Assembly (NCBI GenBank): GCA_047516145.1
Contig: JAKZVH010000359.1
Span: forward strand, 1-41,277
From: Gammaproteobacteria bacterium
Lineage (GTDB): Bacteria > Pseudomonadota > Gammaproteobacteria > Steroidobacterales > Rariloculaceae
Direction: 5' to 3'
DNA: 41,277 nucleotides
The position numbers were made by a program, and so were the translations under genes. The notes beneath the pieces were generated by a model. That model did no database searches and was not told the origin of the DNA. It was given only the letters and a program-made list of their open reading frames with translations. This document shows, in pieces, positions 1 through 18,671 of the stretch (position 1 is its first letter; each line of letters starts with the position of its first letter).

Positions 1-63
1 CAAGGCCGATATCCAGGCAGTCAAGGCCGATATCCAGGCAGTCAAGGCCGACCTTCAGGTCGA
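1..63 (+). repeat. 21-bp in-frame tandem repeat: two perfect copies plus a degenerate third
   Basis: Bases 1-21 and 22-42 are identical (caaggccgatatccaggcagt). Bases 43-63 (caaggccgaccttcaggtcga) are a diverged copy, and another caaggccgacct unit starts at 76. Each unit encodes one KADxQxV heptad. Confidence 0.85.
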
Positions 64-178
64 GATACAGACGGTCAAGGCCGACCTGTTGAAATGGATG
101 GTGACCGCGATGACTGCCCAGACCGGAGTGATCCTGGGGCTGGCCGCGGGCCTGATCCGGCTATTCTGGCTACGCTGA
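2..178 (+). CDS. C-terminal end of a coiled-coil, tail-anchored protein (DUF1640-like). Partial: continues upstream of the window.
   Basis: Frame +2 is open from base 2 to the TGA at 176-178. It reads KADIQAV-KADIQAV-KADLQVEIQTV-KADLLKWMVTAMTAQTGVILGLAAGLIRLFWLR. These are heptad-like KAD repeats, then KWM and one hydrophobic helix, which is the architecture I recall for DUF1640 proteins. It is absent from the ORF track because there is no start codon in the window. Confidence 0.5.
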   Translation, partial: KADIQAVKADIQAVKADLQVEIQTVKADLLKWMVTAMTAQTGVILGLAAGLIRLFWLR

Positions 179-192
179 TCGGCGCGGGCTGA

Positions 193-1578
193 TTATCCGT
201 CGTCGACGATATCCTGAGCCGCTCGCTCACCCGACTCCATGGCGCCCTCCATGCCGCGGTTGGCCAGACTCAGGTGTTCGCCGCAGAACCGAATCAGACC
301 ATGCGCAGCGCCCATGGCGGCGGCGAAGCGGGTGATCTGTCGGGGGCGAAAATAGGCCCACGCCCCGCGGGCGCAAGGGTCGCTTCCCCAACTTTTTCGC
401 CCGATGAATTCCAGCTGACCGTGCGCGGCCGGGCGTGCTGCCTCGATCTCCTGGATCACCCGGGCGCCGGCTTCCCGAGGGGCCAGCGCGTCAAGTAGTG
501 CCGCGTTACGGCCCATTACCCAGGCCGAAAATCCGGTGACCTCCGACGGATCCTGGCCGTTGCGGACGGCGGCCATCATTCCCGCGGTACTGTCGGTGAA
601 CAGGCTGGGAGCGAATCCATCCGCTTCCCAGAACCGGGATTTATGGGCGAAGTAGAGTTGGGTCATGGGCTGCGCCGGCAGGTTCGCCACAGCCTCCCGC
701 TGTTCGCCACTCAAGGGTGGGTCGATGCCGATCCCTCGCAATACCCCGAAGGGCAGGGCGCATACTGCGTGAGCCGCCCGGTAGACGGTACCGTCGTCAC
801 AGCGCACCGTTACGCGACGCCTGTCATCCTCGATTCCCGTCACCACTCGGCGAAAGTGCACGGGCTGATCGAGTGCCGCGGCCATGGCCTCCGGGACTCG
901 CTGCACGCCGTTCTCCACGGTATATCCGGCAGCGCCCGCAATAGAGGCCGAACGGGACTTGGAAGAGGCCGCTTGCGCCTTCGAGAAAGCCGCCCGGAAA
1001 AGCATCAGTAGCGCCGATACTCCGCGCGCGTCTTCGCCGTAGCTGACGTTGATGCCGTAGCCGACCCGGATCGCCGCATCGCTGAGTCCGAGCCCCTTCA
1101 TCCATTCGTACATGGAGACATCGAGCCTGGCGTTGGCCGGGTCGAGCCAGTCCCGCGGACTCTCGAGGCGGTTTTCCCGAGCAGTCAACACTCGGCTGTA
1201 CCTCCAGGGCAGCAACGCCTTGTCCCTCGCCGGGAACGGATTCGCGGGATGATCGGCCCACTCCGACTGGCGGATGATGGCGCCGTCGAGTACCAGGTCC
1301 TGTTCGCGGAAGAATTCCAGCGCGCGCGTGATATCGACGAGACCGATACCGAACCGCGATGCCGCGGCGATGACCCGCCGGTAGCCTGCGCCGATGAAAG
1401 TCCCGCCGGCTTCCATTTGCCCGCCGAGTTGCCGCATGGATCGCACGCGCCCGCCGACGCGCTCCCGGGCTTCGATCACCTGGACGTCGACGCCGGCGTC
1501 CTGGAGGTGCAAGGCGGCGCTGAGGCCCGCGAGACCCGCGCCGATCACCACTGCTTCGCAGCGATGTACCGGCGTCAC
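193..1578 (-). CDS. FAD-dependent flavin amine oxidase-family oxidoreductase (monoamine-oxidase-like). It is the last gene of the heme chain and a candidate functional CgoX/HemY replacement.
   Basis: ORF 193..1938 was trimmed. The first ~120 residues are Arg/Gly/Pro junk overlapping hemH. The GTG at 1578-1576 overlaps the hemH TGA (GTGA). The dinucleotide-binding motif VVIGAGLAGLSAALHL..VIEARERVGGR and the C-terminal FCGEHLS..GMEGAMESGERAA are typical of the Pfam Amino_oxidase family. Confidence 0.8.
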   Translation of the reverse strand: MTPVHRCEAVVIGAGLAGLSAALHLQDAGVDVQVIEARERVGGRVRSMRQLGGQMEAGGTFIGAGYRRVIAAASRFGIGLVDITRALEFFREQDLVLDGAIIRQSEWADHPANPFPARDKALLPWRYSRVLTARENRLESPRDWLDPANARLDVSMYEWMKGLGLSDAAIRVGYGINVSYGEDARGVSALLMLFRAAFSKAQAASSKSRSASIAGAAGYTVENGVQRVPEAMAAALDQPVHFRRVVTGIEDDRRRVTVRCDDGTVYRAAHAVCALPFGVLRGIGIDPPLSGEQREAVANLPAQPMTQLYFAHKSRFWEADGFAPSLFTDSTAGMMAAVRNGQDPSEVTGFSAWVMGRNAALLDALAPREAGARVIQEIEAARPAAHGQLEFIGRKSWGSDPCARGAWAYFRPRQITRFAAAMGAAHGLIRFCGEHLSLANRGMEGAMESGERAAQDIVDDG

Positions 1579-2642
1579 GTCAACTCCGCACCGCAGAGCG
1601 CACCGGGTGGCTCGCCGGGTCGGCCGGAAAGGCAGCAATCGGCCGGGCAGACATCGTGGCTGGGCCCGCGCCCGCCCAAAGCCGGGCGGTCTGGGCCAGC
1701 CGTCATCCGCTCGACGATCAACTCCCGCACCATGCCCACGTAGGCGGGATGGGCGCCCACCGTACCCGCGCGCACCATGTCGAGGCCCAACTCGGCGGCC
1801 TTGTCCGCCGCTTCCACGTCCAGATCCAGGACGACCTCCATGTGATCGCAGACGAATCCGATGGGGGCGACCACGACATCCGTATGTCTCGCCCCGCGCG
1901 TGGCCTCCAGCGCTTCGCTGATGTCCGGCCCGAGCCACGGCTCACCGTAGGAAGCGTTTTGGCTCTGGTAGACCAAGATCCAGGCCCCGGCACCCGCCGC
2001 CTCGGCGGACAGCGCGCACGCTTCCCGCAGCTGGGCCCGGTAGTCGCAGCGTTCCGCCATGGACAGCGGCAGGCTGTGGGCTGTGAACAGCAAGGCCGGT
2101 GGCGCTCCACCGGCGGGCAGCCGCGCGAACGCCTCGCGCAGCCGGTCGCTCACGGCCGCGATGAAGCCGGGATGGTTGTAGCCGACCCGCAGCTTGTCGA
2201 TTTGCGGTGCGCCTTCAAGCCCCTGCACCGCGGTGTAGAGATCTTCGCGGTATTTCCGGCAACCGCTGTATGAACTGAACGTGCTGGTGACGTAGGCGAT
2301 GGCTCGGCGGATCCCGTCGGCGGCCATCCGTTCCAGCGTATCTCCGAGCAGGGGGTGCCAGTTGCGGTTACCCCAGTAGACTGGTATCCGCGGTCCGGCG
2401 GCAGCCAATTCGCCCTCAAGCGCCCCGACGAACTCCCGGGTGTGGGCGTTGATCGGGCTGACACCCCCAAAGCGATGGTAGCGCTGGGCGATGCGCGCCT
2501 TGACCGGCGGCGGCACACGCAGCCCCGCCAGCACGTTGTCGAGAAACGGCATGACGTCGTCCGTGCCCTCGGGGCCGCCGAAAGAGACTACCAGCACGGC
2601 GTCGTACTTCCGGGCTTCGTTGTCGTAGAGCTCAGCCGGCAT
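1575..2642 (-). CDS. hemH: Ferrochelatase. By context probably a coproporphyrin ferrochelatase (CpfC), with a Cys-rich C-terminal tail.
   Basis: N-terminal YDAVLVVSFGGPEG, plus FTAHSLP and PIGFVCDHMEV, are ferrochelatase hallmarks. The last 30 residues carry four Cys (VCPADCCLSGRPGEPPGALC) and there is an internal SGCRKYRE. This resembles [2Fe-2S]-type microbial ferrochelatases. Confidence 0.9.
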   Translation of the reverse strand: MPAELYDNEARKYDAVLVVSFGGPEGTDDVMPFLDNVLAGLRVPPPVKARIAQRYHRFGGVSPINAHTREFVGALEGELAAAGPRIPVYWGNRNWHPLLGDTLERMAADGIRRAIAYVTSTFSSYSGCRKYREDLYTAVQGLEGAPQIDKLRVGYNHPGFIAAVSDRLREAFARLPAGGAPPALLFTAHSLPLSMAERCDYRAQLREACALSAEAAGAGAWILVYQSQNASYGEPWLGPDISEALEATRGARHTDVVVAPIGFVCDHMEVVLDLDVEAADKAAELGLDMVRAGTVGAHPAYVGMVRELIVERMTAGPDRPALGGRGPSHDVCPADCCLSGRPGEPPGALCGAELT

Positions 2643-3366
2643 CGGCGATCCGGCTCTGCCACACTGTCCGTCCGACGAAGAACGGTCCCAGGCTGTCCAG
2701 AAACTGCGAAGTCTGCTCGGTCTTGCGCATCTCCTGCACCACCGCCGAGAGGGGGAACAGATTTGGACCCAGCAGCCCGATCACGAAGTCGTTGTCGTGC
2801 TTGTCCAGACCGTGGCAGGCCAGGCGGATATCCGCCGCGAGCCCGGCGGCGCCGTAGCGCCTGCCAATGGAGCCATGCTCGGCGAGAATCTGGCGCTGCT
2901 TGGCTTGCGGCAGCACGTAAAAGCTCTTGGAGCGCTGCAGCGGGTACCACACCGCCCAGGTATGGACCGGATTGAGAATCTTGGAGCGGGGCTTCTCGAA
3001 CAGCGTATCCTCCAGATCCGGCTCGTAACCGATGGTGTACGTGCGCCCGAGCATGTCGAATTCGCCCTTGTGGGTCATGTCCGCAAAGGGCGGACCGTTG
3101 AACGCATTCCGGAGTGCCTGGGCGAAGAACGCCGGATCCTCGGCCATCGCGATGACGCCAATGCCTGTGGGGTCATTGGCGTCAAGGTATAACGCCCCCT
3201 CGACTCCCGCTTCCTCGAGGGCCTGTCCCGCGGCAGCGACGTCGCCACAACCGTTGAACGCGGTGAATTTCATGAACAGCCGGCGGTTCAGCGAGATCGG
3301 CCGGCCTTCGCGCGTGCCTTTCTCGCTGAGATCCACCGACACCGGGTCTTGTCTTGATTGCGTCAC
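2632..3366 (-). CDS. hemQ: Chlorite dismutase-family protein, likely coproheme decarboxylase (HemQ/ChdC)
   Basis: 244 aa. WAVWYPLQRSKSFYVLP..RQILAEHGSIGRRY..PFFVGR aligns by eye with actinobacterial HemQ (YPFVRSYEWYLLP..MLADHGMAARGY..PFFTGR), including the proximal His. The gene sits between hemE and hemH. Its GTG start overlaps the hemE stop. Confidence 0.7.
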   Translation of the reverse strand: MTQSRQDPVSVDLSEKGTREGRPISLNRRLFMKFTAFNGCGDVAAAGQALEEAGVEGALYLDANDPTGIGVIAMAEDPAFFAQALRNAFNGPPFADMTHKGEFDMLGRTYTIGYEPDLEDTLFEKPRSKILNPVHTWAVWYPLQRSKSFYVLPQAKQRQILAEHGSIGRRYGAAGLAADIRLACHGLDKHDNDFVIGLLGPNLFPLSAVVQEMRKTEQTSQFLDSLGPFFVGRTVWQSRIADAG

Positions 3367-4385
3367 GTTGCTTGCTCCTCGTGCACGGCGTCGACCAGCG
3401 CGGTCACGCTTTCCAGCGGGGTACTCGGGAGAATGCCGTGGCCCAGATTCACGATATGGCCCTCGGGCTTCACCCGTTGTAACAGGTTCGCCGCCGCCGC
3501 CCGGGTCGGCACGGCGCCGCCCAACAGAATGGCGGGGTCGATATTGCCCTGCACCGCTCGGCCTGGATAGCGTGACTGCAGGGCCGCGATGTCCACTCGC
3601 CAGTCCACAGCCAGCACCTCGGCGGGCAGGCTCGCGTACGCCTCAAGCAGGTGCGGCGCGTTCTGCAGAAACATGATCCTCGGTACGCCGGCCTCACCGA
3701 CCGCATGGAGCAGTTTGGTCAGATGAGGCCGAATGAGCCGTTCCCAATCCGGTAGCGAGAGGACGCCCGCCCAGGAATCGAAGATCTGTACGGCGTCGGC
3801 GCCTGCCCGCGCCTGGCTGATCAGGTATGTTGCCATGGCATCGGCAAGTTTTCCGAGCAGGTTCTGAAGAACGTCCGGCTGTGCCGCCGCGAAGGCGCGC
3901 AACGTGGGGAAGTCCCTCACGCCGCGTCCCTCCACGAGGTAGGCGGCCAGGGTCCACGGTGCACCGCAGAATCCCAGCAACGCGGTTTCCTCGGGGAGCA
4001 CGGCGCGGGTCTGCCTGAGCGCGGCGACGACCTCGGGTCCGAGCCGGTCCGGGTCCGGCGGCGTCAGCGCGTCCACGCCCGCCTTGTCGCGAATCGGGTT
4101 CTCCACCACCGGGCCGGGGTCAAAGTCGAACTTCACGCCCAACGCCGGCAGCGGGCTCATGATGTCGGCGAATACGATGGCAGCGTCCAGAGGGAATCGC
4201 GCCAACGGCATCAGGGTCACTCTGGATGCAAGTTCGGCGGACTGTGCCACCGCCTTGAAGGGATAGGATCGGCGCAACTCGCGGTACTCGGGCAGGTAGC
4301 GCCCGGCCTGGCGCATGATCCAGAGCGGGCGCCGGTTGACGGCCTCGCCGCGAATCGCCTTCAGCAGCAGCCTTTCCCCGGTCAC
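3363..4385 (-). CDS. hemE: Uroporphyrinogen decarboxylase
   Basis: The URO-D signature PLWIMRQAGRYLPEYRELR lies near the N-terminus. Length is 340 aa. Confidence 0.95.
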   Translation of the reverse strand: MTGERLLLKAIRGEAVNRRPLWIMRQAGRYLPEYRELRRSYPFKAVAQSAELASRVTLMPLARFPLDAAIVFADIMSPLPALGVKFDFDPGPVVENPIRDKAGVDALTPPDPDRLGPEVVAALRQTRAVLPEETALLGFCGAPWTLAAYLVEGRGVRDFPTLRAFAAAQPDVLQNLLGKLADAMATYLISQARAGADAVQIFDSWAGVLSLPDWERLIRPHLTKLLHAVGEAGVPRIMFLQNAPHLLEAYASLPAEVLAVDWRVDIAALQSRYPGRAVQGNIDPAILLGGAVPTRAAAANLLQRVKPEGHIVNLGHGILPSTPLESVTALVDAVHEEQAT

Positions 4386-5101
4386 TGTACCCGCTCCGCT
4401 TCGCTGGTAAACCGGTAGCCGACGCCGCGCACGGTATGAAAGTGCTCGGGGGCCTCCGGGTTGCGCTCGAATCGCTTGCGCAGGCGCACGATGAAATTGT
4501 CAATCGTTCGAGTAGAGGGATACACCTCGTAACCCCACACTTTATCGAGGATGTCCTCTCGCGGGACGATGGCGCCATCGTGTTCCGCGAGCACCTTCAT
4601 GATCATGGCTTCCTTGTGGGTCAGCGAGTGCTCGATACCGTCCCATCCCAGGGCGTGATACGTCAGAAAATCGATCTCGTTACCGCTGAAATGCAGCGTG
4701 GACCTGGCCCGTGCATACCAGTGACTGCGGCGCAGGATGGCCGCGACCCGCAGCAACAACTCCTTGAGATGGAACGGTTTGGCCAGGTAGTCGTCGCCGC
4801 CGGCTTCAAGACCGCGAATGCGATCCTCGGGGCCTCCCTTCACCGTGAGGAACATCACCGGCGTGTGCATTGCGTTGCGGCGCAGTTCCTCGCACGTCTT
4901 CAGCCCATCCATTCTTGGCATCATCACGTCCAGAAGAATCAGGTCGAAGCGGCTTGCCAGCGCCTTGCGAAGGCCTTCGGCGCCGTCGTTGGCCACTTCC
5001 GCGGCGTAGCCTTCGGCTTCCAATATCTCGCGGATGCCGTCCGCCAGGTGAACCTCATCGTCGACCACCAGTATCCGGGCCGGATGGATCGCTGCGCTCA
5101 C
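4382..5101 (-). CDS. OmpR/PhoB-family response regulator
   Basis: Receiver domain: ILVVDDE..DLILLDVMMPRMDG..KP. C-terminal winged helix: TRTIDNFIVRLRKRF..TVRGVGYRF. The GTG start overlaps the kinase stop, and its own stop overlaps the hemE GTG start. Confidence 0.92.
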   Translation of the reverse strand: MSAAIHPARILVVDDEVHLADGIREILEAEGYAAEVANDGAEGLRKALASRFDLILLDVMMPRMDGLKTCEELRRNAMHTPVMFLTVKGGPEDRIRGLEAGGDDYLAKPFHLKELLLRVAAILRRSHWYARARSTLHFSGNEIDFLTYHALGWDGIEHSLTHKEAMIMKVLAEHDGAIVPREDILDKVWGYEVYPSTRTIDNFIVRLRKRFERNPEAPEHFHTVRGVGYRFTSEAERVQ

Positions 5102-6186
5102 CGCTGCGCTCCGGGGACCGGCCAGTCCACGGTGACCGTCGCGCCCGTGCCCGGCCCGTCGCTGGCAGCGCTGACCCGGGCTCCCGAGAGCTCCGCAAGA
5201 CCGCGAACGAGGTACAACCCCAGCCCGGTACCCTGTGTGGAACGGCGCATCTCGTCCCCGAGCCGATAGAATTTTTCGAAGATCATGGAGGCGTCCTCGG
5301 GCGCAAAGCCACTGCCGTCATCGCGCACCGTGATACGAACGAACCGGCCGGCCGGTTCAGCGCCTATCCACACGCTTTGACCCTGCCCGGAGACACAGGC
5401 CTTGACGGCGTTGTCGAGCAGGTTGCGCAGAACCGTTTCGATCGCGAAGGGGTCTGCATCCACCCGCAAATCGCCGCTAACGCTGACTTTGATGTCCACG
5501 CCGTGCCCGTGGGCCGCCTCCTGGTGATGGGCCAGGCTAGCCTCGATAACGCCGGCCAATTCGAGCGTACCCCGCTTCAATTCGATGCGGCCTTCCTCGA
5601 GCCGCGTGGTCTCCAGCAGGTTTTCCACCATCCGCAACAACCGCTCGCCATCCTCCAGCATCCGCTGGCCCAGGCGTTGCGTGTGCGGATCGTCGGTTCG
5701 TCTGATCAGGGATTCGGCCGCGAGCCTGATGCTGGCCAACGGGCTCTTCAATTCGTGCGAGACGGCGGCGAGAAAGTTCTGTTGCCGCTTTCTGAGCTGC
5801 GCATCGTGCCGGATCGTGCGCGTCAGCACGGTCATGCCGCCCAGCAGCACCAGCAGGAAGAATCCGCCTTCCCAGGTATAGCGATTGATGCGCGAATCGG
5901 CGTCGTCGGCGAGGGCCTGCAGGGACTCCGGCCGAACGGCCGCCGTGCCCCGATCCGCGTCGATCTCGATGTGGGGCAATAGCTCCGGCAGTTGGAGCGC
6001 CGCCTGCGCGAACGCCGCGGTGACTGCCAGCGCGTCGGCTTCATAGAGCGCCGCGATGCGATCCCGATTGTCCCGCGCCAGGCTGCGCTGATCGGCGACC
6101 CACCAGGCAGTCTGGGCCGTGGATATCGCCAGCAGGGCGAGAAAACCGAACTGCAGCGCCATGGTTGGATTGCGTTTCAGCGTCAT
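5098..6186 (-). CDS. Sensor histidine kinase with two TM helices and a ~95-aa extracytoplasmic loop; no HAMP or PAS domain recognised
   Basis: H-box FLAAVSHELKSPLASI, N-box LRNLLDNAVKA, and G-boxes DDGSGF and GTGLGLYLV are present. ORF 5098..6447 was trimmed to the ATG at 6186 (MTLKRNPTMALQFGFLALLAIS). The upstream part overlaps hemL, and this ATG forms an ATGA overlap with the hemL stop. Confidence 0.9.
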   Translation of the reverse strand: MTLKRNPTMALQFGFLALLAISTAQTAWWVADQRSLARDNRDRIAALYEADALAVTAAFAQAALQLPELLPHIEIDADRGTAAVRPESLQALADDADSRINRYTWEGGFFLLVLLGGMTVLTRTIRHDAQLRKRQQNFLAAVSHELKSPLASIRLAAESLIRRTDDPHTQRLGQRMLEDGERLLRMVENLLETTRLEEGRIELKRGTLELAGVIEASLAHHQEAAHGHGVDIKVSVSGDLRVDADPFAIETVLRNLLDNAVKACVSGQGQSVWIGAEPAGRFVRITVRDDGSGFAPEDASMIFEKFYRLGDEMRRSTQGTGLGLYLVRGLAELSGARVSAASDGPGTGATVTVDWPVPGAQR

Positions 6187-7538
6187 GACTCGCTCTCCAT
6201 CGATTCCTCGGTTGCCGGGTGGTCGGGTTGGTTTGCCCCGGCCACGGTTTCGAGCACTTCCCGCAGTGTCGTGGCGAAGCGGTCGATGTGCCCGGTATCG
6301 TGGGCCAGCGACAGGAATCCCACCTCGAACGCTGACGGCGCCAGCGCGATGCCGCGTTCCATAAGGCCGTGAAAAACCTGCCGGTAGATTTGTGCGCCCC
6401 GCGGGTGGACCGCCGCGGCGGACCGCGGCGCTTCGGTCGATCCCCACGCGATCCAGAAGATCGAGCCGATGCGCACCAGCGCGGCCGGGACCGAGGCGGC
6501 GCGCAGCACTTCGTCGAGGCGCTGCTCCAGGTATTTTCCGAGACGCTCCAGGGTCTGCCAGCCGTGGCGGCGCTGCAGATACTTGAGCGTCGTCAGCCCC
6601 GCCGTCATGGCCACCGGATTGCCGGACAAGGTGCCGGCCTGGTACACGCCTCCGGTGGGCGCCAGGTGCTGCATCGTCTCTCGCGGGCCGCCGAACGCGC
6701 CCACGGGCATGCCGCCCCCGATGACCTTGCCGAAGGTGACCAGGTCAGGCTGCACGTCGTAGTGGGCCGCCGCGCCCCCGGGTCCCAGCCGGAAACCCGA
6801 AATGACCTCGTCGAAGATCAAGAGTGCCCCGTGGCGCGTGCATCGCTCGCGCAGCAATTTCAGAAACTCCGGGCGTTGCAGGAGCAGGCCGTTATTCGCG
6901 GGTACGGGTTCGATGATGACCGCGGCGATGCGGTCGCCGTCGCGATCGAAGAGTGCTGCCACGGCGTCGTCGTCGTCGAGCGGCAGGACGCGGGTCAGCG
7001 CCGCATGCGGCTCCGGGATACCCAGCGACGACGGGGTGCCGAAGGTTGCCAGCCCGGAGCCCGCCGCCACCAGCAGGTCATCCACGTGGCCGTGATAGCA
7101 GCCGGAGAACTTGACGATGAGTTCGCGTTCTGTGGCGCCCCGGGCCAGGCGCACGGCACTCATCACGGCCTCGGTTCCGGAGGATACGAAGCGCACCTGC
7201 TCGATGCCGGGGTAGCAGGCCACCACGGTCTCGGCCAGCTCGATTTCCACTGCGGACGGCGCGCCGAAGGAGGTACCGCGGCCAACGGCGCCCTTAACGG
7301 CAGCCACGACCGATGGGTGGGCATGGCCCAGGATCAGCGGGCCCCACGACCCGACGAAGTCCAGGTAGCGATTGCCGTCCTCGTCGACGACTTCGGCGCC
7401 ACGGCCCTCGCGGATGACCTTCGGGGTTCCGCCCACGCCGCGAAACGCCCGCACGGGCGAACTCACGCCGCCGGGCAGGACCTCGAGCGCCCGGTCGAAC
7501 CATGCAATCGATCGCGGGTTCCCGCGGGCGGGGCTCAT
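6183..7538 (-). CDS. hemL: Glutamate-1-semialdehyde 2,1-aminomutase
   Basis: Class-III aminotransferase fold with SWGPLILGHAHP, FDEVISGFR and TFGKVIGGGMPVGAFGG (PLP-lysine region). Confidence 0.95.
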   Translation of the reverse strand: MSPARGNPRSIAWFDRALEVLPGGVSSPVRAFRGVGGTPKVIREGRGAEVVDEDGNRYLDFVGSWGPLILGHAHPSVVAAVKGAVGRGTSFGAPSAVEIELAETVVACYPGIEQVRFVSSGTEAVMSAVRLARGATERELIVKFSGCYHGHVDDLLVAAGSGLATFGTPSSLGIPEPHAALTRVLPLDDDDAVAALFDRDGDRIAAVIIEPVPANNGLLLQRPEFLKLLRERCTRHGALLIFDEVISGFRLGPGGAAAHYDVQPDLVTFGKVIGGGMPVGAFGGPRETMQHLAPTGGVYQAGTLSGNPVAMTAGLTTLKYLQRRHGWQTLERLGKYLEQRLDEVLRAASVPAALVRIGSIFWIAWGSTEAPRSAAAVHPRGAQIYRQVFHGLMERGIALAPSAFEVGFLSLAHDTGHIDRFATTLREVLETVAGANQPDHPATEESMESES

Positions 7539-8539
7539 AGCCAGCCCCCCTCGATTGCATCCCGCGCGTGATAGGTAATGATCTGATCGGCGCCGGCGCG
7601 GCGGATTGCCAACAGGTTCTCGCGAACCACCTGGGCTTCATCCAACCAGCCGTTGGCCGCCGCTGCCTTGACCGCGGCGTATTCGCCGGAGACATTGTAG
7701 GCGGCCAGCGGAAGCCGGCTGGCGCCGCGCACGGCCCGAATGACGTCGAGATAGGCGAGGGCGGGTTTCACCATGAGCATGTCCGCGCCCTCGCGCTCAT
7801 CAAGCTCCGCTTCGCGCAGCGCCTCGCGGACGTTGCGCGGGTCCATCTGGTAGCTGCGCCGATCCCCGAATGCCGGTGCGGAGTCCGCCGCGTCGCGAAA
7901 CGGCCCGTAGTAGGCGGAGGCGTACTTGACGGCGTAGGCGAGGAGCAGGACATTGTCGTGGCCGGCCGCATCGAGGGCGTCGCGGATGGCGGCGACGCGT
8001 CCGTCCATCATGTCCGAGGGTGCGACGACATCGGCGCCAGCCTCGGCGTGGCTCAATGCGGTCCGCACCAGCGGTACGAGGGAAGCGTCATTGACTACGT
8101 GGCTGTTGTCGACGATGCCACAGTGGCCATGATCGGTGTAGGCGCAGAGGCATACGTCGGTCATTACCACGAGATCGTCGCCGAATTCGGCCTTCAGCCG
8201 GCCGACCGCGCGTTGCACACTGCCGTCCGCGGCCCACGCCGCCTGACCGTCGGCCGTCTTGTGCCCGGCTTCGTCGGAATGGCCGAAGAGGAGAACCGAT
8301 CGAATTCCCAGATCCAGGTCGCCCGCCACGCGGCTGACCAGGTTGTCGAGACCGAGTTCGGCGATGCCCGGCAGCGACGGGATGGGTCGCTCGGCCCTTC
8401 GTGTTCCAAGCACGAAGTGGGGCACGATGAACTGTGACGGTGAGATCCACGTCTCCGCCGCCAGATCCCGGATGACCTGGTTCCGGCGCAGACGTCGCGG
8501 ACGTATGCGCTTGGGAGTGGTCACTCTCGTGTCGTTCAT
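7535..8539 (-). CDS. hemB: Porphobilinogen synthase (ALA dehydratase), Zn-type
   Basis: Cys-rich metal site DVCLCAYTDHGHCG, PSDMMDGRV, and the active-site Lys region MVKPALAYLD. Confidence 0.95.
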   Translation of the reverse strand: MNDTRVTTPKRIRPRRLRRNQVIRDLAAETWISPSQFIVPHFVLGTRRAERPIPSLPGIAELGLDNLVSRVAGDLDLGIRSVLLFGHSDEAGHKTADGQAAWAADGSVQRAVGRLKAEFGDDLVVMTDVCLCAYTDHGHCGIVDNSHVVNDASLVPLVRTALSHAEAGADVVAPSDMMDGRVAAIRDALDAAGHDNVLLLAYAVKYASAYYGPFRDAADSAPAFGDRRSYQMDPRNVREALREAELDEREGADMLMVKPALAYLDVIRAVRGASRLPLAAYNVSGEYAAVKAAAANGWLDEAQVVRENLLAIRRAGADQIITYHARDAIEGGWL

Positions 8540-9324
8540 TGCATGATCTCCAACAGCCCTTCCAGGCTGGGTTGCGGCGCCTCCGCGGTTACGGTCAAGC
8601 CGGCGGCCCGCGCCGCGCGGCTGGTGGAAGGGCCGATGCTAAGTATTTCCGCCGCCGTGTCGAATTCAATCCTGTTCATCAGGCCCGTCACGGCCGACGG
8701 GCTTGCCAGGAGGATTTTATCCGCACGGAGTTCCGAGAGCGCCTGTTTTCGGGTCGGCGGCGCCGTTGGCACCGTGCGGTAAACGTTGATGCGCAGGCAC
8801 ACGCCCCCGGCGCGCCCCAATGTTTCCTCCAGGATCGGCCCGGCATTCTCAGCGACCGCGATCAATATCCGGGGGGGCTTTTGCCGTGACCCCGATTCCG
8901 CGTCGAGGCGCGCCGCCAGCGCCTGGGCCAGGGATGCCGCGGTGCCATCGGGGGCCACCAGGTCCACCCGGCCGGGCAGCCCGCGGGCTGCGTCGGCTGT
9001 CGCGGGTCCGACCGCGGCGATCAGAAGATCCGGACGTCTTTCAGCGGCAGCGCGATCCGATTCCGACGCGGAAATCCACGCTCGGAGCGCGTCGGCACCG
9101 CGCCGGGACGTCAACACAAGCCAATCGGTCGCCGGCAGCGCTGCCGCCATTCGAGACCGGGCTGCCGGATCGCGAATGGGCTGGCATTCAATGCACGGCA
9201 TCATCAGCGGTACGGCGCCTGCATTCGCCAGCCGCGACGCCCAGGGCGCGCAGTCCTCGGCGGCTCGGGTGACCAGGACCCGTTGTCCAATGAGCCCGCT
9301 CACGGCGGCTTCAGCCCGATCCAT
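8536..9324 (-). CDS. hemD: Uroporphyrinogen-III synthase
   Basis: HEM4-like size (~255-262 aa), GQRVLVTR start of the fold, and the position between hemC and hemB. The longest ORF starts at 9324 (25-nt overlap with hemC). A GTG at 9303-9301 would give the same GTGA overlap seen at the other junctions and may be the real start. Confidence 0.8.
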   Translation of the reverse strand: MDRAEAAVSGLIGQRVLVTRAAEDCAPWASRLANAGAVPLMMPCIECQPIRDPAARSRMAAALPATDWLVLTSRRGADALRAWISASESDRAAAERRPDLLIAAVGPATADAARGLPGRVDLVAPDGTAASLAQALAARLDAESGSRQKPPRILIAVAENAGPILEETLGRAGGVCLRINVYRTVPTAPPTRKQALSELRADKILLASPSAVTGLMNRIEFDTAAEILSIGPSTSRAARAAGLTVTAEAPQPSLEGLLEIMQ

Positions 9325-10220
9325 GCGGACTCCACCAGCGCGTCGAGGTCGGTTTCGCGCGCCGTTGCCTCAACAACCCTGCCCTCATGCTCAAGCCAGG
9401 CGATGAGCCGATAGGTTCCGGCCGATGGTCGGTCCGCCGTGCACCAGGCGCCGAATGCCGTGTCGCAGCCGCCCTCCACCCGGGCCAGCAATGCGCGCTC
9501 GGCTTGAACCGCCTGGCGGGTGGCGTTGTCGTCAAGGGCTTCAAGCGCCGCCCGAATTCGGGTATCCGATCGTCGGCACTGGATCGCCAGCGCGCCCTGT
9601 GACGGCGCCGGCACAAAGTTCTCCGGAGACAAACGCCGGAGCACGAATTCATCGGTCACGGGATCGGCGACGCCGTCCAGCGGACTTTGTCGCAATCTCT
9701 CGATCCCCGCGGCGGCGAGCACCACACCGTCCAGATCGCCGCGCAAGCGGTTGATGCGCGTGGGCACATTACCGCGGATGGGTACCACCGCGACGTCCGG
9801 CCGCAGGTGCCTGATCCAGGCCTGGCGCCGCGCGGAGGCCGTGCCCACTTTGGCTCCGTCGACGATGGGCAGCCCGTGACTCGGTTCGGCTGCCGCCGCC
9901 TTGTTCGTCACGAGTACGTCTGCTGGATCAATCCGCGCGGGCACCGCCGCGATCGTCAGTTCCGGCGGTGAACCCGTGGGAAGATCCTTGTAGGAGTGCA
10001 CGGCGATGTCCACGTGTGCGTCGATCAGCGCTTGCTCGATCTCCCGCACGAAGACGCCGTGCGGTCCGATCGCGCTGAAGGATGTCGCGGGGGATCGGTC
10101 CCCGGCGGTCGTGATGATAGTGATCGACGTTTCGTGCCCGAGCCTGGCGAGTTCCCCGGCGATACCAGCGGTTTGCGTGCGCGCCAGATGCGATCCGCGC
10201 GTTCCCAGCCGGAGCTTCAT
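9300..10220 (-). CDS. hemC: Hydroxymethylbilane synthase (porphobilinogen deaminase)
   Basis: N-terminal KLRLGTRGSHLARTQT, with SYKDLP and IRGNVPTRI motifs. Confidence 0.95.
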   Translation of the reverse strand: MKLRLGTRGSHLARTQTAGIAGELARLGHETSITIITTAGDRSPATSFSAIGPHGVFVREIEQALIDAHVDIAVHSYKDLPTGSPPELTIAAVPARIDPADVLVTNKAAAAEPSHGLPIVDGAKVGTASARRQAWIRHLRPDVAVVPIRGNVPTRINRLRGDLDGVVLAAAGIERLRQSPLDGVADPVTDEFVLRRLSPENFVPAPSQGALAIQCRRSDTRIRAALEALDDNATRQAVQAERALLARVEGGCDTAFGAWCTADRPSAGTYRLIAWLEHEGRVVEATARETDLDALVESAWIGLKPP

Positions 10221-11629
10221 CGGTTTGCCCCCTGGACGCCGTCCGCGCCCTTCGCTGCGCCGGAGAGATCGTTGCGCCCCGTCCCGCGAACGGCATCGCG
10301 TCCGTGTGGGGCGCGGTCGAGCGCCCGGCGCAGTTCCTCGGCGAACTCCGCGTCGAGCCCCTGGAGAAAGGCGTCCAGCGATCCGTCGGGCCCGTGGTGC
10401 AGAAGGCCTCTCAGCCCCAGTGTCGGGATATGCGCGAAGCGCCGCGCCAGGACCTCGGCCCAGGTTTCGATGGCTTCCCGCTCGGCCTCTCCGAGTCCCT
10501 TCAAATCTTTCTTGAGCAATCGCCGCACACCTTCCCGGGCGGTATGCCGGTAGCGGTTCTGCAGAGCGCCGAACAGCGGGCCGTAGACTCGCTCTGCGAA
10601 CCGGTCCCGAAGCCGGGGCAATGCTTCGTCCACGAGTTCGCGCGCCTGGGCGGTTTCAAGTAGTCGCGCCGCGCGGTTGCCCTGGGCTACGCGGACGATC
10701 TCGTCCATGCCCATGCGATGCAGGCCGAGCTTCTCGCAGGCGCGGCTGTCGATATTCTCGGGGACGGCCATGTCGATCAGGACGGGTGCCTCACCGGAAG
10801 GCGTCTTCGCGGCAATCCGTTCGAGTACCGATTCCGTCAGCAGCGGTTCGGGCGCGCCGGCCGAGCTGAGCACGGCTTCCACGGCCGGGGGATCGCGCAG
10901 AAAGTCGGCCAGCGCCACAGCCTCGGCGGAGTATGCGTCCGCGGCAGCCCGGGCCTTGGCTACCGTTCGATTCACGAAGATCAGCGGCGTACCGGATTTC
11001 GCCAACGACCGCGCCGCCCTCTCCGTCATGGCCGAGACACCCACCAGGGCGACGGCGCCGGGGGTGCGCTTGAGCCGCTCGCGCAGCCGCGCCACGGCGA
11101 CCTCCGCCAAAGACACGCGCCCGTGCCCCAGGCGCGTCGCACCGCGCACCCGCGCCGCGATGATCAGGGTTTCGTCGAAGAGCAGTTCCAATCGCGGTCC
11201 GCTGAGCCCCAGGGCGATCGCGCGATCGCGGCAGTCGCGGACCTGACCGACGATTTCCACCTCGCCGACCGCGGCGGAATCCAGTCCGGCGGCGACCAGA
11301 AACAAGTGCTCGCAGGCCCCCTCGCCCTGCCACGCCTTGAGCGCGCGCTGGGCTTCGCCGGGGCCCGGTGCCTGGCCGGTGAGCAGTTCGTATGCCTGGG
11401 GCCGAAGGTCGGTGTGGCGACGGTCACCCGGAACCGCGTCCGGGGCCCGCGCGAAGATGAGTTCGACGCGGTTGCAGGTATCCAGGTAGGCGAGTTCCGA
11501 CAGACCGGCTTGGTGGGCGAAGTCCTGCAGGCGTCGGTCGCGCGCCGCCTTCGGCAAGGCGAAGCGAGCCAGGGCTTCGCTGCCGTCCTGGCGCCACGAA
11601 ATGCCGACGATGCCGAGTTCTTCCAACAC
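10217..11629 (-). CDS. hemA: Glutamyl-tRNA reductase
   Basis: Catalytic-Cys motif LDTCNRVELIF, a central Rossmann segment VALVGVSAMTERAA, and a C-terminal dimerisation helix region. The start is a GTG with no purine-rich SD upstream. Confidence 0.93.
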   Translation of the reverse strand: MLEELGIVGISWRQDGSEALARFALPKAARDRRLQDFAHQAGLSELAYLDTCNRVELIFARAPDAVPGDRRHTDLRPQAYELLTGQAPGPGEAQRALKAWQGEGACEHLFLVAAGLDSAAVGEVEIVGQVRDCRDRAIALGLSGPRLELLFDETLIIAARVRGATRLGHGRVSLAEVAVARLRERLKRTPGAVALVGVSAMTERAARSLAKSGTPLIFVNRTVAKARAAADAYSAEAVALADFLRDPPAVEAVLSSAGAPEPLLTESVLERIAAKTPSGEAPVLIDMAVPENIDSRACEKLGLHRMGMDEIVRVAQGNRAARLLETAQARELVDEALPRLRDRFAERVYGPLFGALQNRYRHTAREGVRRLLKKDLKGLGEAEREAIETWAEVLARRFAHIPTLGLRGLLHHGPDGSLDAFLQGLDAEFAEELRRALDRAPHGRDAVRGTGRNDLSGAAKGADGVQGANR

Positions 11630-11660
11630 GGGGGAAAGGGTAGGGATCGGTGGGGCGCGA

Positions 11661-11678
11661 TTGTCATCGGACTGTCAC
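11661..11678 (+). promoter_or_regulatory. Pho-box-like direct repeat (TTGTCAT-cgga-CTGTCAC, 11-bp period) in the hemA/MBL divergent region
   Basis: Read directly from the sequence. It lies 32-49 nt upstream of the hemA GTG. This architecture is typical of OmpR/PhoB-family binding sites. The function is inferred only. Confidence 0.3.
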
Positions 11679-11841
11679 AGCAGGTCGCTGCCGGACGATC
11701 CGCGCATGCAGTAGCCGGTCGGCGAGGCAAACGCGATCAACAGGGTCTACGCAGGTTTGTGCGGGCGCGGGCACGCGGTACACTGGGATACCGGGATCGA
11801 ACGCGGTTCCAGTCGACAAGTGCAACAAGAGAAGGGGACCG

Positions 11842-12705
11842 ATGAATAAACAGCTTATCGTAATGCTCGCGGGTACGCTGGCGCTGCCAGTGACGCAATC
11901 CGCCCTGGCCCAGGACGAACCGTTTCGAGAGATCGTCAACATCGCCGGCGATCTCTATCGGGCCACGAACAATGGCCACCACACCGCTTTTCTGGTGACG
12001 TCCGAGGGCATCATCCTCACCGATCCGATCGGGACCGACTTCGCGACCTGGCTCAAGGCGGAGCTGGAAGAGCGGTTCGGAGTGCCCGTGCGCTACGTGC
12101 TCTACAGCCACTACCATGATGACCACGCCTCGGGAGGAGCCGTTTTCGACGACACGGCCGAGTTCATCGGCCACGACAATATGCCCATTAACCTGGCACG
12201 GGAGGAGGGCAATGAAATCTTCGCCGAGGTCCGCCCGCCGGACCGCACGTATTCCGGCAGCACCAGCGTGACCCTCGGCGGCAAGACCGTGGAGATGATC
12301 TACGCGCTTCCGAGCCACAGCGATGACTCCTCGATCATCCGTTTCCCCGACGAGCGCACCATATTCGCGGTGGACTTTGTCAACGTCCGTCGCGTGCCGT
12401 TCCAAACGATGGGCGGGGGCGACATTGCCACCTGGATCGCGGCCAACCACCATCTCCAGTCGACGGTGGACTACGACATCGTCGCCCCGGGTCACGGGCC
12501 GATCGGGACCAAGGCGGACGTGGATGATTCGACCCGCTACCTGGAAGATCTGCTGGCGGCCGTGTCCGAAGCGGTGGACGCTGGAATGAGTCTGGAGGAG
12601 GCGCAGCAGAGCGTGCTCATGGAAGATTACAGCGATTACGCGCAATACGATGTCTGGCGGGCCATGAACGTGCAGGGCGTCTACGAGAGATTGACCGCGG
12701 AATAG
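11842..12705 (+). CDS. Secreted MBL-fold metallo-hydrolase
   Basis: ORF 11650..12705 was trimmed to the ATG at 11842, which is preceded by gaagggga. The signal peptide is MNKQLIVMLAGTLALPVTQSALA-QD. The HxHxDH motif is LYSHYHDDHASGG. Confidence 0.85.
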   Translation: MNKQLIVMLAGTLALPVTQSALAQDEPFREIVNIAGDLYRATNNGHHTAFLVTSEGIILTDPIGTDFATWLKAELEERFGVPVRYVLYSHYHDDHASGGAVFDDTAEFIGHDNMPINLAREEGNEIFAEVRPPDRTYSGSTSVTLGGKTVEMIYALPSHSDDSSIIRFPDERTIFAVDFVNVRRVPFQTMGGGDIATWIAANHHLQSTVDYDIVAPGHGPIGTKADVDDSTRYLEDLLAAVSEAVDAGMSLEEAQQSVLMEDYSDYAQYDVWRAMNVQGVYERLTAE

Positions 12706-12871
12706 CTGCTTCGGCAACTCCTGAAACACGCGCGGGGAAACAAATCGATATAACGAACCGATACCCGTCGAGACGCGCGTTTCCGGGGTATCTCGCCGCC
12801 AGTCCGGCCTTGATTCCGGCATGCTCCGCCGTCGCGCAGCTATGTCGCCTGAGTAAGCGGATCAGCCGCGA

Positions 12872-13279
12872 CTACGATTGGCCGGCATTGTTCTTTCGCC
12901 CACGGCCGAGGATGGCCACCACAACCCACACGGGCGCGCTCAGCACGACCGCGTAGATCGCGATCGCAATGGGTCCGAGCAGGCCGGCGATCTGAGTCGC
13001 CGCGACCGTGATCGCCCCGAGCGCCGCCATGGCCAGCCACGAAACCCGAGGGTAGCCGTGCCGCCACAGCCGCCGGCACGCAAACGCCAGCGGCATCCCG
13101 CAGGGCGCAACGACAATCAACGATGTCGACGCGGCAAGCAGCGACAGCCATCCCATGGGGGTCGCCAGTTGCTCGGAAACGCGCACGACCGATGTCAGTA
13201 TGACGCCGGCAGGCAGCCAGACCAGCGAACCGATCAGGAAGGCGTGGCGTGAGTGGACCAGTTCGTTCAATCGGGACAT
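12872..13279 (-). CDS. Small integral membrane protein (about 4 TM helices), unknown function
   Basis: 135 aa and strongly hydrophobic, with helix-like segments (FLIGSLVWLPAGVILTSVV, WLSLLAASTSLIVVAP, WLAMAALGAITVAATQIAGLL, IAIAIYAVVLSAPVWVVVAIL). The overlapping frame 12840..13286 translates to Arg/Ala junk. Confidence 0.5.
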   Translation of the reverse strand: MSRLNELVHSRHAFLIGSLVWLPAGVILTSVVRVSEQLATPMGWLSLLAASTSLIVVAPCGMPLAFACRRLWRHGYPRVSWLAMAALGAITVAATQIAGLLGPIAIAIYAVVLSAPVWVVVAILGRGRKNNAGQS

Positions 13280-13480
13280 GACTCAACCTGCCTGTTTCTT
13301 CGTTCCCATGTGATGCATCATCGCAGCGTCCGCGTACACATGACCCATCACTCCGTATGCCTTGCGGATAGAGGCCAACATTGGTGTCCGAGTTCCACCG
13401 CGGTCACCCGTCGAGTGAAATATTTACGGTTAATATTGTCTGAATCGGTGATGTTCGCGATCCAGGCAAGGTACTGACCC

Positions 13481-14347
13481 ATGCGCATCTCGTCAATTGA
13501 AGGCAATCGCCAGTGGCTGGACGGCGGCGCGATGTTCGGCAACGCGCCGCGGGCGCTGTGGGCCCGATGGATGGAGCCGGACGAGCACAACCGCATTGAA
13601 TTGGCGTGCCGCGCGATCCTGGCCGAGGACGTGGAGGGCAAGCGAGTCCTGTTCGAAACCGGCATCGGCCATTTCTTCGAGCCGCGGCTTCGGACCCAGT
13701 ACGGCGTCTTTGAGGACGAGCATGTGCTGCTGCGTTCGCTGGAAGCGCGCGGCATTTCCCATGAGGACATCGACGCCGTGGTGCTCAGCCATCTGCACTT
13801 CGAGCATGCCGGGGGTCTACTGACGTCGTACTCGTCAGGTGAAGCGTTGCGGCTGCTCTTTCCCAACGCCCGCTACCTGGTGAGCGTCGACGCCTGGGCG
13901 CGCGCCAGGAATCCACATCCACGGGACCGGGCTTCGTTCATCCCGGAGCTCACGTCGTTGCTCGAATCGAGCGGCCGGCTGGAGCTTGTTGAGGGAGCGC
14001 ATTCGCCAAACCTGGGGATGGCGGTCCGGTTCGAGTTCAGTCACGGGCATACCCCGGGGCTGATGCTTGCGGAGATCGGCGGCGACGGAGGCGTGGTATT
14101 TTGCACGGACCCGATTCCCGCCCGGCCCTGGGTCCACCTCCCCATCGCCATGGGCTACGACCGCTACCCGGAGCAACTCGTCGACGAGAAGCGGGCATTC
14201 CTTGCGGACAAGCTGGCCCGCGGCGTGCGGCTGTTCTTTACTCACGATACCGAATGCGCGATGGCCCGGCCGGTACTGGACCAGCGCGGCCGCTTCACCA
14301 CCGCCGATGAGCGGCGATCGGTCGACGGGTTGGTTGTGGCCGCTTGA
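13481..14347 (+). CDS. Cytoplasmic MBL-fold metallo-hydrolase with a variant HxHxEH motif
   Basis: [13 protein letters not shown], with later SHGHTPG and FTHD motifs. No signal peptide. Confidence 0.8.
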
Positions 14348-16232: not shown

Positions 16233-16296
16233 GTGTTCCTGAGTAGCGTTCCACGATTGGCCGAGAACCGGGGCATTGTATCGCGGTGCCGCCTGC

Positions 16297-17868: not shown

Positions 17869-18671
17869 ATCGGACCTTCGATTTCGACATGATCGCCATC
17901 GACGCGGCCGCGCACTCCGTATATCTCCGCAAGTCGAGCCGCACTCAGTGTCGTGGCGGGCGATCCGTCGGCGACGATTCGCCCACCCTTCATCCAGATG
18001 AATCGGTTTGCGTAACGCCTGGCGAGCACGACGTCATGGAGCACCACCAGGGCGCCGCCGCCCTGACCGACGAAGGTCTTGATCAGGTCCATGACCCGAA
18101 ACTGGTGGTATGGATCCAGCTCCGCCACCGGCTCATCGGCTATCAGCAGCGGCGCTTCGGCAGCGAACGCGCGGGCGCAGTGCACGCGCGCCAACTCGCC
18201 TCCCGACAGTGTTGCGGTCGAACGTTTGGCCAGTGAATCGAGGTCGCACGAAGCCAACGCACGATCAACGGCCTGGCGGTCGCTGCCGCGCAGTCGCCCG
18301 AGCGCCGCACCGTGGGCGAAGCGGCCAAGCGCCACCACGTCGCGAACCGGATTCGGCCAGGCGAGGGGCCGATTCTGAGGCAGGTAGGCCAGCTGCCGCG
18401 CCCGCCGGCGCGGCGTCATCTCGGCCGTGTCTTGCCCATCGATGCGCGCCCGGCCGGACGTGCGCGGCACCAGTCCAATGGCGCCCCTGAGCAGGCTTGT
18501 CTTGCCGGCTCCGTTGGGCCCCAGCAAGGCGACCAACTCGCCAGCCTGCAGGCCGAACGAGGCGGCTTCGACCAGGACAGCTTCGCCTGCCTTGACGGTC
18601 AGGCCGGTCACCTGAAGCCCGCCGGCGTGACCGCACTGATTCATTCCCCCGTGCCCCTCAGTCATGAACAC
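17865..18671 (-). CDS. btuD: ABC transporter ATP-binding protein, cobalamin/iron-chelate type
   Basis: Walker A GPNGAGKTS, signature LSGGELARV, Walker B LLIADEP. The start is uncertain within 18644-18671. Confidence 0.85.
   Translation of the reverse strand: MFMTEGHGGMNQCGHAGGLQVTGLTVKAGEAVLVEAASFGLQAGELVALLGPNGAGKTSLLRGAIGLVPRTSGRARIDGQDTAEMTPRRRARQLAYLPQNRPLAWPNPVRDVVALGRFAHGAALGRLRGSDRQAVDRALASCDLDSLAKRSTATLSGGELARVHCARAFAAEAPLLIADEPVAELDPYHQFRVMDLIKTFVGQGGGALVVLHDVVLARRYANRFIWMKGGRIVADGSPATTLSAARLAEIYGVRGRVDGDHVEIEGPI

Follow-up and report, generated by a model that had tools for sequence, protein, structure and literature searches.

The stretch of DNA considered here (the window: 41,277 nucleotides, positions 1 to 41,277 of contig JAKZVH010000359.1, assembly GCA_047516145.1) comes from a metagenome-assembled genome (MAG) of a gammaproteobacterium of the family Rariloculaceae. 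Its minus strand carries, between positions 193 and 11629, eleven open reading frames (ORFs) that follow each other with no intergenic DNA at any of the ten junctions. Nine of these junctions are 4-nt overlaps of the ATGA or GTGA type and the other one, between hemQ and hemH, is an overlap of 11 nt. The genes (Table 1) specify enzymes of heme biosynthesis, with a sensor histidine kinase and a response regulator placed between hemL and hemE and a flavoprotein at the end. The usual textbook picture is that Gram-negative bacteria make heme by a protoporphyrin-dependent route and Gram-positive ones by a coproporphyrin-dependent (CPD) route, from scattered genes. The segment 193-11841 would instead be a single, self-contained operon that covers the CPD route in full, beginning with glutamyl-tRNA and ending with heme b.

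The genes were identified by their matches to NCBIfam and Pfam profiles. An earlier note, drawn up from the letters of the sequence, had named ten of them and a flavin amine oxidase, and the profiles agree with all of these names, the eleventh gene matching PF01593 as claimed. The ATGA overlaps that it listed (10217-10220, 8536-8539, 7535-7538 and 6183-6186) and the GTGA ones (5098-5101, 4382-4385, 3363-3366, 1575-1578 and 9300-9303) all read so on the minus strand. The stop codon of hemQ (2632-34) and the ATG of hemH (2642-40) produce the 11-nt overlap that had been singled out as the exception. The gene at the head of the chain, hemA, is present in single copy in the relatives.

Table 1. Genes and control elements of the heme cluster, in the order of transcription, with the number of species among the relatives that keep a 4-nt (-4) overlap with the preceding gene of the chain.
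Feature	Position in the window	Strand	Evidence and remarks	-4 overlap with preceding gene (species)
Divergent promoter region	11630..11841	.	sole non-coding stretch, between hemA and a secreted metallo-beta-lactamase-fold gene	
Direct repeat GTGACAgtccgATGACA, putative operator	11662..11678	-	GTGACA-N5-RTGACA, 11-bp register; 33-49 nt before the hemA GTG, over the -35 position	
-10-like hexamer TACCCT	11637..11642	-	19 nt after the repeat, 7 nt before the hemA GTG	
hemA (gtrR), glutamyl-tRNA reductase	10217..11629	-	GTG start; GlutR_N, Shikimate_DH and GlutR_dimer domains; TIGR01035 E 3e-51, below its cut-off	
hemC, hydroxymethylbilane synthase	9300..10220	-	TIGR00212 246.8 bits (cut-off 164); ATGA overlap with hemA	33/37
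hemD, uroporphyrinogen-III synthase	8536..9303	-	PF02602 141 bits; GTG start at 9303, giving a GTGA overlap; alternative in-frame ATG at 9324	22/38
hemB, porphobilinogen synthase	7535..8539	-	NF006762 461 bits (cut-off 297); ATGA overlap	29/36
hemL, glutamate-1-semialdehyde 2,1-aminomutase	6183..7538	-	NF000818 570.8 bits (cut-off 398); ATGA overlap	29/40
Sensor histidine kinase, 362 aa	5098..6186	-	HisKA and HATPase_c; ATGA overlap with hemL	19/44
OmpR/PhoB-family response regulator	4382..5101	-	Response_reg (REC) and Trans_reg_C; GTGA overlap with the kinase gene	42/46
hemE, uroporphyrinogen decarboxylase	3363..4385	-	TIGR01464 365.8 bits (cut-off 302.95); GTGA overlap	19/48
hemQ/chdC-like coproheme decarboxylase, divergent subfamily	2632..3366	-	PF06778 (Chlor_dismutase) 59.4 bits (cut-off 25); GTGA overlap	27/51
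hemH/cpfC ferrochelatase	1575..2642	-	TIGR00109 133.7 bits (cut-off 124.6); 11-nt overlap with hemQ	5/47; gaps up to 827 nt
Monoamine-oxidase-type FAD flavoprotein in the CgoX/HemY slot	193..1578	-	PF01593 202 bits; GTGA overlap with hemH	19/43

Overlaps of this kind would vanish if the true start codons lay further downstream, a possibility raised in the earlier note and now checked against homologues. The N-termini of the chain proteins align from residue 1 in 14 relatives of the same genus or family, among which the start codon alternates between ATG, GTG and TTG at one aligned position with the overlap retained. For hemD the homologous start is the GTG at 9303; distant genomes offer only that codon, at +10, with no upstream alternative. 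The start codon of the kinase gene is ATG in 43 of 44 species. For the kinase and oxidase genes the starts of the longest ORFs (6447 and 1938, respectively) find no support. Judged by these alignments, the overlaps in the window lie at the true homologous starts at ten of ten junctions.

The distribution of marker proteins separates this family from the rest of its order. In the sampled GTDB order HemQ (PF06778) was found in all six genomes of the family, versus none of 75 genomes from the other 23 families. HemF (PF01218) and HemJ (PF03653) were each absent from the four family genomes searched, versus 50 and 39, respectively, of 57 genomes from the rest of the order. HemF, HemN, HemJ, HemG (Flavodoxin_5) and CgoN (DUF1444; PMC10965808) were sought in five closed genomes of the genus and none was found, nor did these genomes contain any match to canonical HemY above the TIGR00562 cut-off. 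The presence of HemQ together with a ferrochelatase points to the CPD route. Among diderm bacteria, ChdC has been reported in most genomes only for Planctomycetota and Acidobacteria (PMC10991733).

The HemQ of the window resembles only ChdC/HemQ in structure matches and scores below the cut-off of the NCBIfam HemQ models; it belongs to a divergent subfamily, which is also seen in Chloroflexota, Vicinamibacterales and Planctomycetota. In 23 sequences its residues W140-Y141-P142 and E163-H164 do not vary; their counterparts in the alignment are the VYP and AEHG stretches of the ChdC of Corynebacterium diphtheriae, which we take to hold the catalytic Tyr and the proximal His of that enzyme. The ferrochelatase ends in a Cys-rich tail (CPADCCLSGRPGEPPGALCG) and is a candidate CpfC, its specificity for coproporphyrin or protoporphyrin not being readable from sequence. 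The earlier note had called a complete heme cluster unusual. This is well founded for a proteobacterium, the other families of the order having scattered genes and the HemF/HemJ route, yet the cluster is not unique: the same eleven-gene order recurs in about 50 species, and a nine-gene cluster with a canonical HemY is found in Anaerolineae.

How such a cluster came to reside in a gammaproteobacterium can be glimpsed by comparing its genes with a marker of the host. The best matches of the RpoC of the same MAG are exclusively gammaproteobacterial (82-91% identity), so that the host itself belongs to this class. HemB, in contrast, is 60-65% identical to sequences of MAGs labelled Acidobacteriota or Holophagae versus 46-54% to those of genomes of the same order. 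In the HemB tree the family groups with the former, apart from a same-order clade with support of 100. When HemB and HemL were concatenated (760 columns, 52 rows), a common clade with the order was rejected (delta lnL 197.6, p-AU 2.6e-6 in the approximately unbiased (AU) test); the identity values and the first tree were already known when this constraint was chosen. The sister in the concatenated tree is a MAG labelled Acidobacteriota (L034; support 97), followed by a group containing Holophagae (support 96). The nearest HemQ sequences from outside the family belong to Chloroflexota, Acidobacteriota and Planctomycetota. The GC content at third codon positions (GC3) of the cluster is within one standard deviation of the genome mean, showing no compositional signal of transfer, as would be expected for an old, family-wide acquisition. 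Since the two-gene alignment rejects common descent with the order, these comparisons point to a cluster acquired horizontally, with replacement of the protoporphyrin branch (HemF and HemJ). In L034 itself (JASFRZ010000146, 3773-10382) a GTGACA-N5-GTGACA repeat and a TACCCT hexamer precede hemA, hemL is directly followed by hemE, and upstream there is a different gene resembling ferrochelatase; this bin may carry a wrong phylum label.

The direct repeat in front of hemA is the sole match to GTGACA-N5-RTGACA in the 3.0-Mb draft genome, versus 0.37 expected. It is found at hemA, once per genome, in all five closed relatives, one relative having a second copy elsewhere, and it precedes hemA in each of 32 family genomes, which cover nine genera. 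The hexamers TAcCCT or TAACCT appear at the same distance from the repeat in relatives. No Shine-Dalgarno sequence precedes the GTG of hemA (duplex dG +0.3) and the -10-like hexamer is only 7 nt away from it, so that the hemA mRNA is probably leaderless or has a very short leader. In several genera the repeat lies further upstream and is followed by a leader of 25-45 nt with a Shine-Dalgarno sequence. A search of window positions 1-13500 for a riboswitch or leader RNA gave no Rfam match. Two cluster variants in which the two-component system remains next to hemA have the repeat, and three variants that do not have this system are without it. The regulator hardly varies in its recognition-helix region (YPSTRTIDNFIVRLRK) among 52 orthologues, and the repeat is likely the operator of the regulator encoded within the operon.

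The kinase has two transmembrane helices and neither a HAMP nor a PAS domain. Among 44 orthologues the transmembrane helices and the dimerization and phosphotransfer domain (DHp) are highly conserved and the extracytoplasmic loop (residues 31-105) is poorly conserved, a combination which suggests that sensing takes place within the membrane; as to the nature of the signal, our guesses would be the load of heme or porphyrin, or the redox state. None of the NCBIfam models for regulators and kinases reaches its cut-off for either protein, and a large protein search with the kinase gave only close orthologues under generic names ("PhoR", "HAMP domain-containing histidine kinase") and no functional lead. 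Outside the phylum, a MAG of Daejeonella sp. (Bacteroidota; L040:6086-15073) has the order hemA, hemC-hemD fusion, hemB, hemL, kinase, regulator, TPR protein and hemE. From the second membrane helix on, its kinase has 32% identity, and its regulator has the STRTIDNFI recognition-helix motif in common with ours, so that another phylum has a homologous two-component system likewise placed between hemL and hemE. The hemA of this MAG is preceded by no more than a degenerate TTTACA-N5-GTGACA.

Some cluster variants differ in the presence of these regulatory elements. In two MAGs labelled Candidatus Azotimanducaceae the gene order differs: L154 has hemA, kinase, regulator, hemE, hemQ, hemH and oxidase, with the repeat present, and L123 is alike except that no kinase was detected. 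Two others labelled Alphaproteobacteria (L244 and L271) contain hemC-D-B-E-Q-H-oxidase, with neither the two-component system nor the repeat. These four clusters are useful natural controls for the link between regulator and operator. Two members of the family with small genomes of about 1.2 Mb (G079 and G110, genus g18) have a very divergent hemA (33-34% identity) and no orthologue of the oxidase at E<=1e-100, HemQ being present in G079; they may show the fate of the operon under genome reduction.

The terminal gene is the most difficult to assign. A canonical HemY/CgoX was considered and rejected, since its product reaches 34.5 bits with TIGR00562 (cut-off 97.85), in a match limited to the FAD-binding N-terminus, and the nearest structures are monoamine, amino-acid and putrescine oxidases. 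With a profile built from 15 sequences, the top 60 PDB matches are all amine oxidases, monoamine oxidase (MAO) B appearing at 1e-49. The AlphaFold model (pLDDT 84, pTM 0.86) has among its top 50 fold matches only MAO, putrescine oxidase and L-amino-acid oxidase (LAAO), with TM-scores of 0.74-0.80; the predicted fold confirms the MAO branch, and the substrate is not assignable from it. Orthologues with at least 54% identity are always located in a heme cluster and form a single clade (support 100), whereas homologues with at most 48% identity, in other Gamma- and Alphaproteobacteria, are never linked to heme genes. An orthologue is present in 39 of 42 high-quality genomes of the family.

As to individual residues of this flavoprotein, the alignment does not show those typical of MAO and LAAO enzymes (Lys296 and the cage pair): position 296 of MAO-B corresponds to an invariant Gln307, 398 to Trp407, and 435 has no counterpart. 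In MAO-B, we take K296 to be the conserved lysine at the flavin N5 and Y398 and Y435 to form the two-residue aromatic cage. The cluster-linked proteins contrast with the unlinked ones at positions 406 (A/G versus D), 309 (Y versus H) and 410 (F versus W). By elimination, the oxidation of coproporphyrinogen to coproporphyrin is assigned to this protein as a candidate. The earlier note had spoken of a complete set of enzymes from glutamyl-tRNA to heme; the last gene is not a recognisable CgoX/HemY, and the completeness of the pathway would be a reasonable inference from elimination and synteny.

In order to judge how exceptional the chain of overlaps is, we took as background the genes called with a home-made codon score in the draft genome of 3.0 Mb (2429 ORFs, 1311 same-strand neighbouring pairs). 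A start giving a 4-nt overlap is available at 179 of the 1311 same-strand junctions (13.7%). The heme chain has eight consecutive 4-nt junctions, or ten if any short overlap is counted, and the next longest run in the genome is four. The duplex energy with the anti-Shine-Dalgarno averages -6.8 kcal/mol at the internal starts versus -3.4 +/- 2.4 at random positions of the same DNA, and it is -6 or lower at seven of the ten internal starts versus 13.6% of background positions. Within the chain, promoter-like sites (one, at 8663-8636, versus 1.4 expected) and terminator-like sites (6 versus 7.3 expected) occur at chance level, counts that are uninformative either way. A single transcript and translational coupling would be consistent with this arrangement, which is an extreme but mechanistically ordinary case. 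Coupling here would give coordinated and not equal synthesis. The fixed stoichiometry put forward in the earlier note is not supported: a stop/start overlap does not make synthesis equal, a separate Shine-Dalgarno accompanies seven of the ten internal starts, and a 1:1 need for a kinase, a regulator and nine enzymes is unlikely.

The same eleven-gene order, with the kinase and regulator genes following hemL and preceding hemE, occurs in closed single-contig genomes, which rules out MAG chimerism. Counted together, the species-level MAGs that have it number about 50, and they bear the label Gammaproteobacteria or Candidatus Rariloculaceae. The overlaps are less constant. Clusters of the window and its close relatives have 8-9 of ten junctions of the -4 type and those of other genera 2-6. 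A search for the same order and the same overlaps in related genomes thus recovered the former throughout the family and a near-gapless chain in close relatives only. Gene order is a trait of the family and the fully gapless chain a trait of one sub-clade, and the loss of overlaps at several junctions across the family indicates that strict coupling is dispensable. The one place where the chain tolerates insertions is the hemQ>hemH junction: in a genome of the same genus (G011; L016:10506-11109) an 827-nt insert there contains an apparent toxin-antitoxin pair of type II, in which an 81-aa Phd/YefM-like antitoxin precedes a PIN-like ORF.

Around the operon, a small convergent gene (1-178, plus strand) ends about 15 nt from the stop codon of the oxidase gene, and no terminator-like hairpin was found between the two. 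Its product consists of tandem heptads of the KADIQAV type followed by a hydrophobic C-terminal helix. On the other side there are two metallo-beta-lactamase-fold genes (11842-12705 and 13481-14347, plus strand). The first, with a Lactamase_B domain and its real start at 11842, is divergent from hemA, has a good Shine-Dalgarno and an N-terminus resembling a signal peptide, and has a 212-bp control region in common with the heme operon. Further along (15207-18033, minus strand), a CobQ-like cobyric acid synthase (GATase_3 and CbiA) and an APH-fold phosphotransferase make up a tetrapyrrole-related pair near the heme operon.

Taken together, the following picture could account for the locus. Transcription would start at a single promoter just upstream of hemA, with the repeat occupying the -35 region. 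The OmpR/PhoB-type regulator encoded in the middle of the operon would bind this repeat, and the operon would in this way control itself. Ribosomes ending one gene would re-initiate on the next, whose start sits in the 3' end of the preceding gene, most downstream starts being also helped by a Shine-Dalgarno buried in the upstream coding sequence. The ancestor of the family would have gained the cluster horizontally, displacing the protoporphyrin route (HemF and HemJ) of the rest of the order, and the oxidase would have been recruited separately from a proteobacterial family. We give this reading of a self-contained CPD operon, comprising the single promoter, self-control by the embedded regulator, coupled translation, horizontal origin and the flavoprotein as oxidase, a probability of about 0.7. 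A more specific proposal, for which we would put the odds somewhat short of even, is that the flavoprotein represents a new class of coproporphyrinogen III oxidase, recruited once from an amine-oxidase-like family of proteobacteria when the foreign cluster was installed, and that the kinase-regulator pair and the single GTGACA-N5-RTGACA operator form a dedicated heme switch.

Several observations weigh against the self-contained operon. The gapless state is not conserved at hemL>kinase, nor at regulator>hemE, hemQ>hemH and hemH>oxidase (Table 1), and at hemE>hemQ and hemQ>hemH gaps of more than 100 nt appear in other genera. The gene call behind the background rate is crude, and our junction classifier favours a -4 start if one falls 15 nt or less from the homologous position. 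When HemB is taken alone, common descent with the order is not rejected (p-AU 0.255). Finally, the last enzyme is by sequence and fold a relative of amine oxidases, and the wider flavoprotein family, including members unlinked to heme genes, partly shares its departures from MAO-B; as the Gln-for-Lys change and the lost Tyr435 counterpart are partly common to both groups, they are no proof of a changed function.

This last point bears on the alternative that we find doubtful but hardest to set aside, in which the flavoprotein would be an amine oxidase travelling with the cluster or a source of H2O2 for HemQ, the oxidation being spontaneous or due to an unrecognised enzyme and the pathway incomplete. 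Coproporphyrinogen does auto-oxidise in air (PMC10965808), neither the sequence profile nor the predicted fold matches anything but monoamine, putrescine and L-amino-acid oxidases, and homologues with 38-48% identity sit away from heme genes in many proteobacteria. Such a passenger would nevertheless have to be retained by nearly all high-quality family genomes, as one clade that is always linked to the cluster and overlap-coupled to hemH, with the Gln in place of the flavin lysine and no Tyr435 counterpart, in a genus whose five closed genomes gave none of the known classes of porphyrinogen oxidase when each was sought. The overlaps, for their part, might be a neutral by-product of compaction in a GC-rich genome with many genes ending in TGA, each gene being initiated independently and the overlaps having no special regulatory meaning beyond the operon. 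This we consider unlikely, although it would fit the separate Shine-Dalgarno at most internal starts, the range of 2 to 9 of 10 -4 junctions among species with the same gene order, and the genome-wide frequency of overlaps; yet the run is twice as long as any other in the genome, and hemA>C, hemD>B, hemB>L and kinase>regulator retain the -4 overlap in 72-91% of species despite turnover of the start codon.

Internal promoters, for example before hemE or hemH, could also split the chain into early, regulatory and late modules. The wide gaps of relatives at hemE>hemQ and hemQ>hemH, with the toxin-antitoxin pair there in one genome, would suit this arrangement, as would the variant clusters L209, L123, L154 and L244, in which late genes are apart from early ones, and the promoter-like site within the chain. 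The complete lack of non-coding DNA within 193-11629, a promoter-like count no higher than chance and an operator before hemA only make it rather improbable. The odds seem lower still that the two-component system is a passenger with other targets and that a different factor binds the repeat. On the 10.5-kb contig of L034 the repeat is present and hemL and hemE have no two-component system between them, as this explanation would have it, but the geometry is the 11-bp direct repeat of the OmpR/PhoB type, the site usually occurs once per genome and only at the heme operon, and repeat and system are found together in 34 loci, the repeat being absent in 3 loci without the system. Least probable by far is that the ancestor of the order already had the CPD route, with vertical descent to this family and loss in every other one. 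The HemB-only AU result and the unremarkable GC3 leave room for it; against it, loss would be needed in 23 of 23 other sampled families along with gain of HemF and HemJ there, HemB and HemL jointly reject the common clade, and the nearest HemQ sequences outside the family are from Chloroflexota, Acidobacteriota and Planctomycetota while RpoC is plainly gammaproteobacterial.

If the self-contained operon is the correct reading, a whole family of environmental Gammaproteobacteria would have swapped heme routes, with pathway, sensor and operator forming one portable unit of 11.6 kb. It would be a clean natural example of pathway replacement by operon transfer and, for synthetic biology, a compact and self-regulated heme cassette. 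The analysis also isolates a strong candidate for the missing oxidase, a conserved flavoprotein overlap-coupled to the ferrochelatase where the known classes were sought and not found. The transferred, self-regulated coproporphyrin operon and its candidate new oxidase are the more interesting biology here. The chain of overlaps matters less; it shows the reach of ordinary stop/start coupling, and to judge from the relatives most of it is dispensable.

Each component of the system has a known counterpart. Stop/start overlaps (ATGA, TGATG) are a textbook mechanism of coupling in bacterial operons such as the trp operon of Escherichia coli. The arrangement and the presumed termination-reinitiation mechanism are the same in the window, which differs in extent only, with ten consecutive overlapped junctions over 11.4 kb. 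An 11-bp direct-repeat geometry is typical of OmpR/PhoB regulators, as in the pho-box. Like this system (OmpR family, class II activation), the window has a direct repeat in that register at the place of the -35, a -10-like hexamer and a regulator of the OmpR/PhoB type; it differs in the GTGACA half-site and in having a single site per genome and not a regulon, the operator itself being putative. Two-component systems acting on hemA are known in Corynebacterium, where HrrSA and ChrSA control hemA and other heme genes in an organism with the coproporphyrin pathway (PMC10991733). They are encoded outside the biosynthetic operon and repress hemA, and we liken them to the pair in the window by role and not by homology.

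The terminal flavoprotein is like CgoX/HemY in being an FAD protein of the same broad Pfam family (PF01593) encoded beside hemH, as hemY is in Bacillus subtilis, but it fails the HemY model and falls in the MAO/LAAO branch by sequence and fold. CgoN (DUF1444; PMC10965808) is unrelated to it.

As for the cluster as a whole, the CPD pathway of B. subtilis is that of Bacillota and Actinomycetota. Its genes (hemAXCDBL, hemEHY and an unlinked hemQ) perform the same nine enzymatic steps with the same early order hemA-C-D-B-L, and HemQ/ChdC and ferrochelatase act after the oxidation of coproporphyrinogen (PMC10991733). In the window all the genes are in one chain, in a diderm gammaproteobacterium; hemX is lacking, a two-component system separates hemL from hemE, the late genes run E-Q-H-oxidase, and an MAO-type oxidase stands in place of HemY. 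Closer in organisation are MAGs of Anaerolineae/Caldilineaceae (L258, L260, L262, L268 and L270), of a diderm-type phylum, which have most or all of the pathway on one strand, several 4-nt overlaps and a HemQ of the same divergent subfamily (52-57% identity). One of them (L258:3749-13670, Anaerolineae MAG JAHDWJ010000037) has all nine genes in the order hemA-C-D-B-Q-E-H-Y-L, and the four others have similar clusters with 6-8 of the nine genes within the stretch retrieved, so that clustering of the whole pathway is not unique to the lineage of the window. These clusters have neither two-component system nor GTGACA repeat, and L258 differs from the window in its canonical HemY (TIGR00562 276.8 bits) and in 4-nt overlaps at only three of eight junctions. 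What is particular to the lineage described here is the gammaproteobacterial host, the embedded two-component system with its putative operator, the MAO-type enzyme in the HemY slot and the extent of the overlaps.

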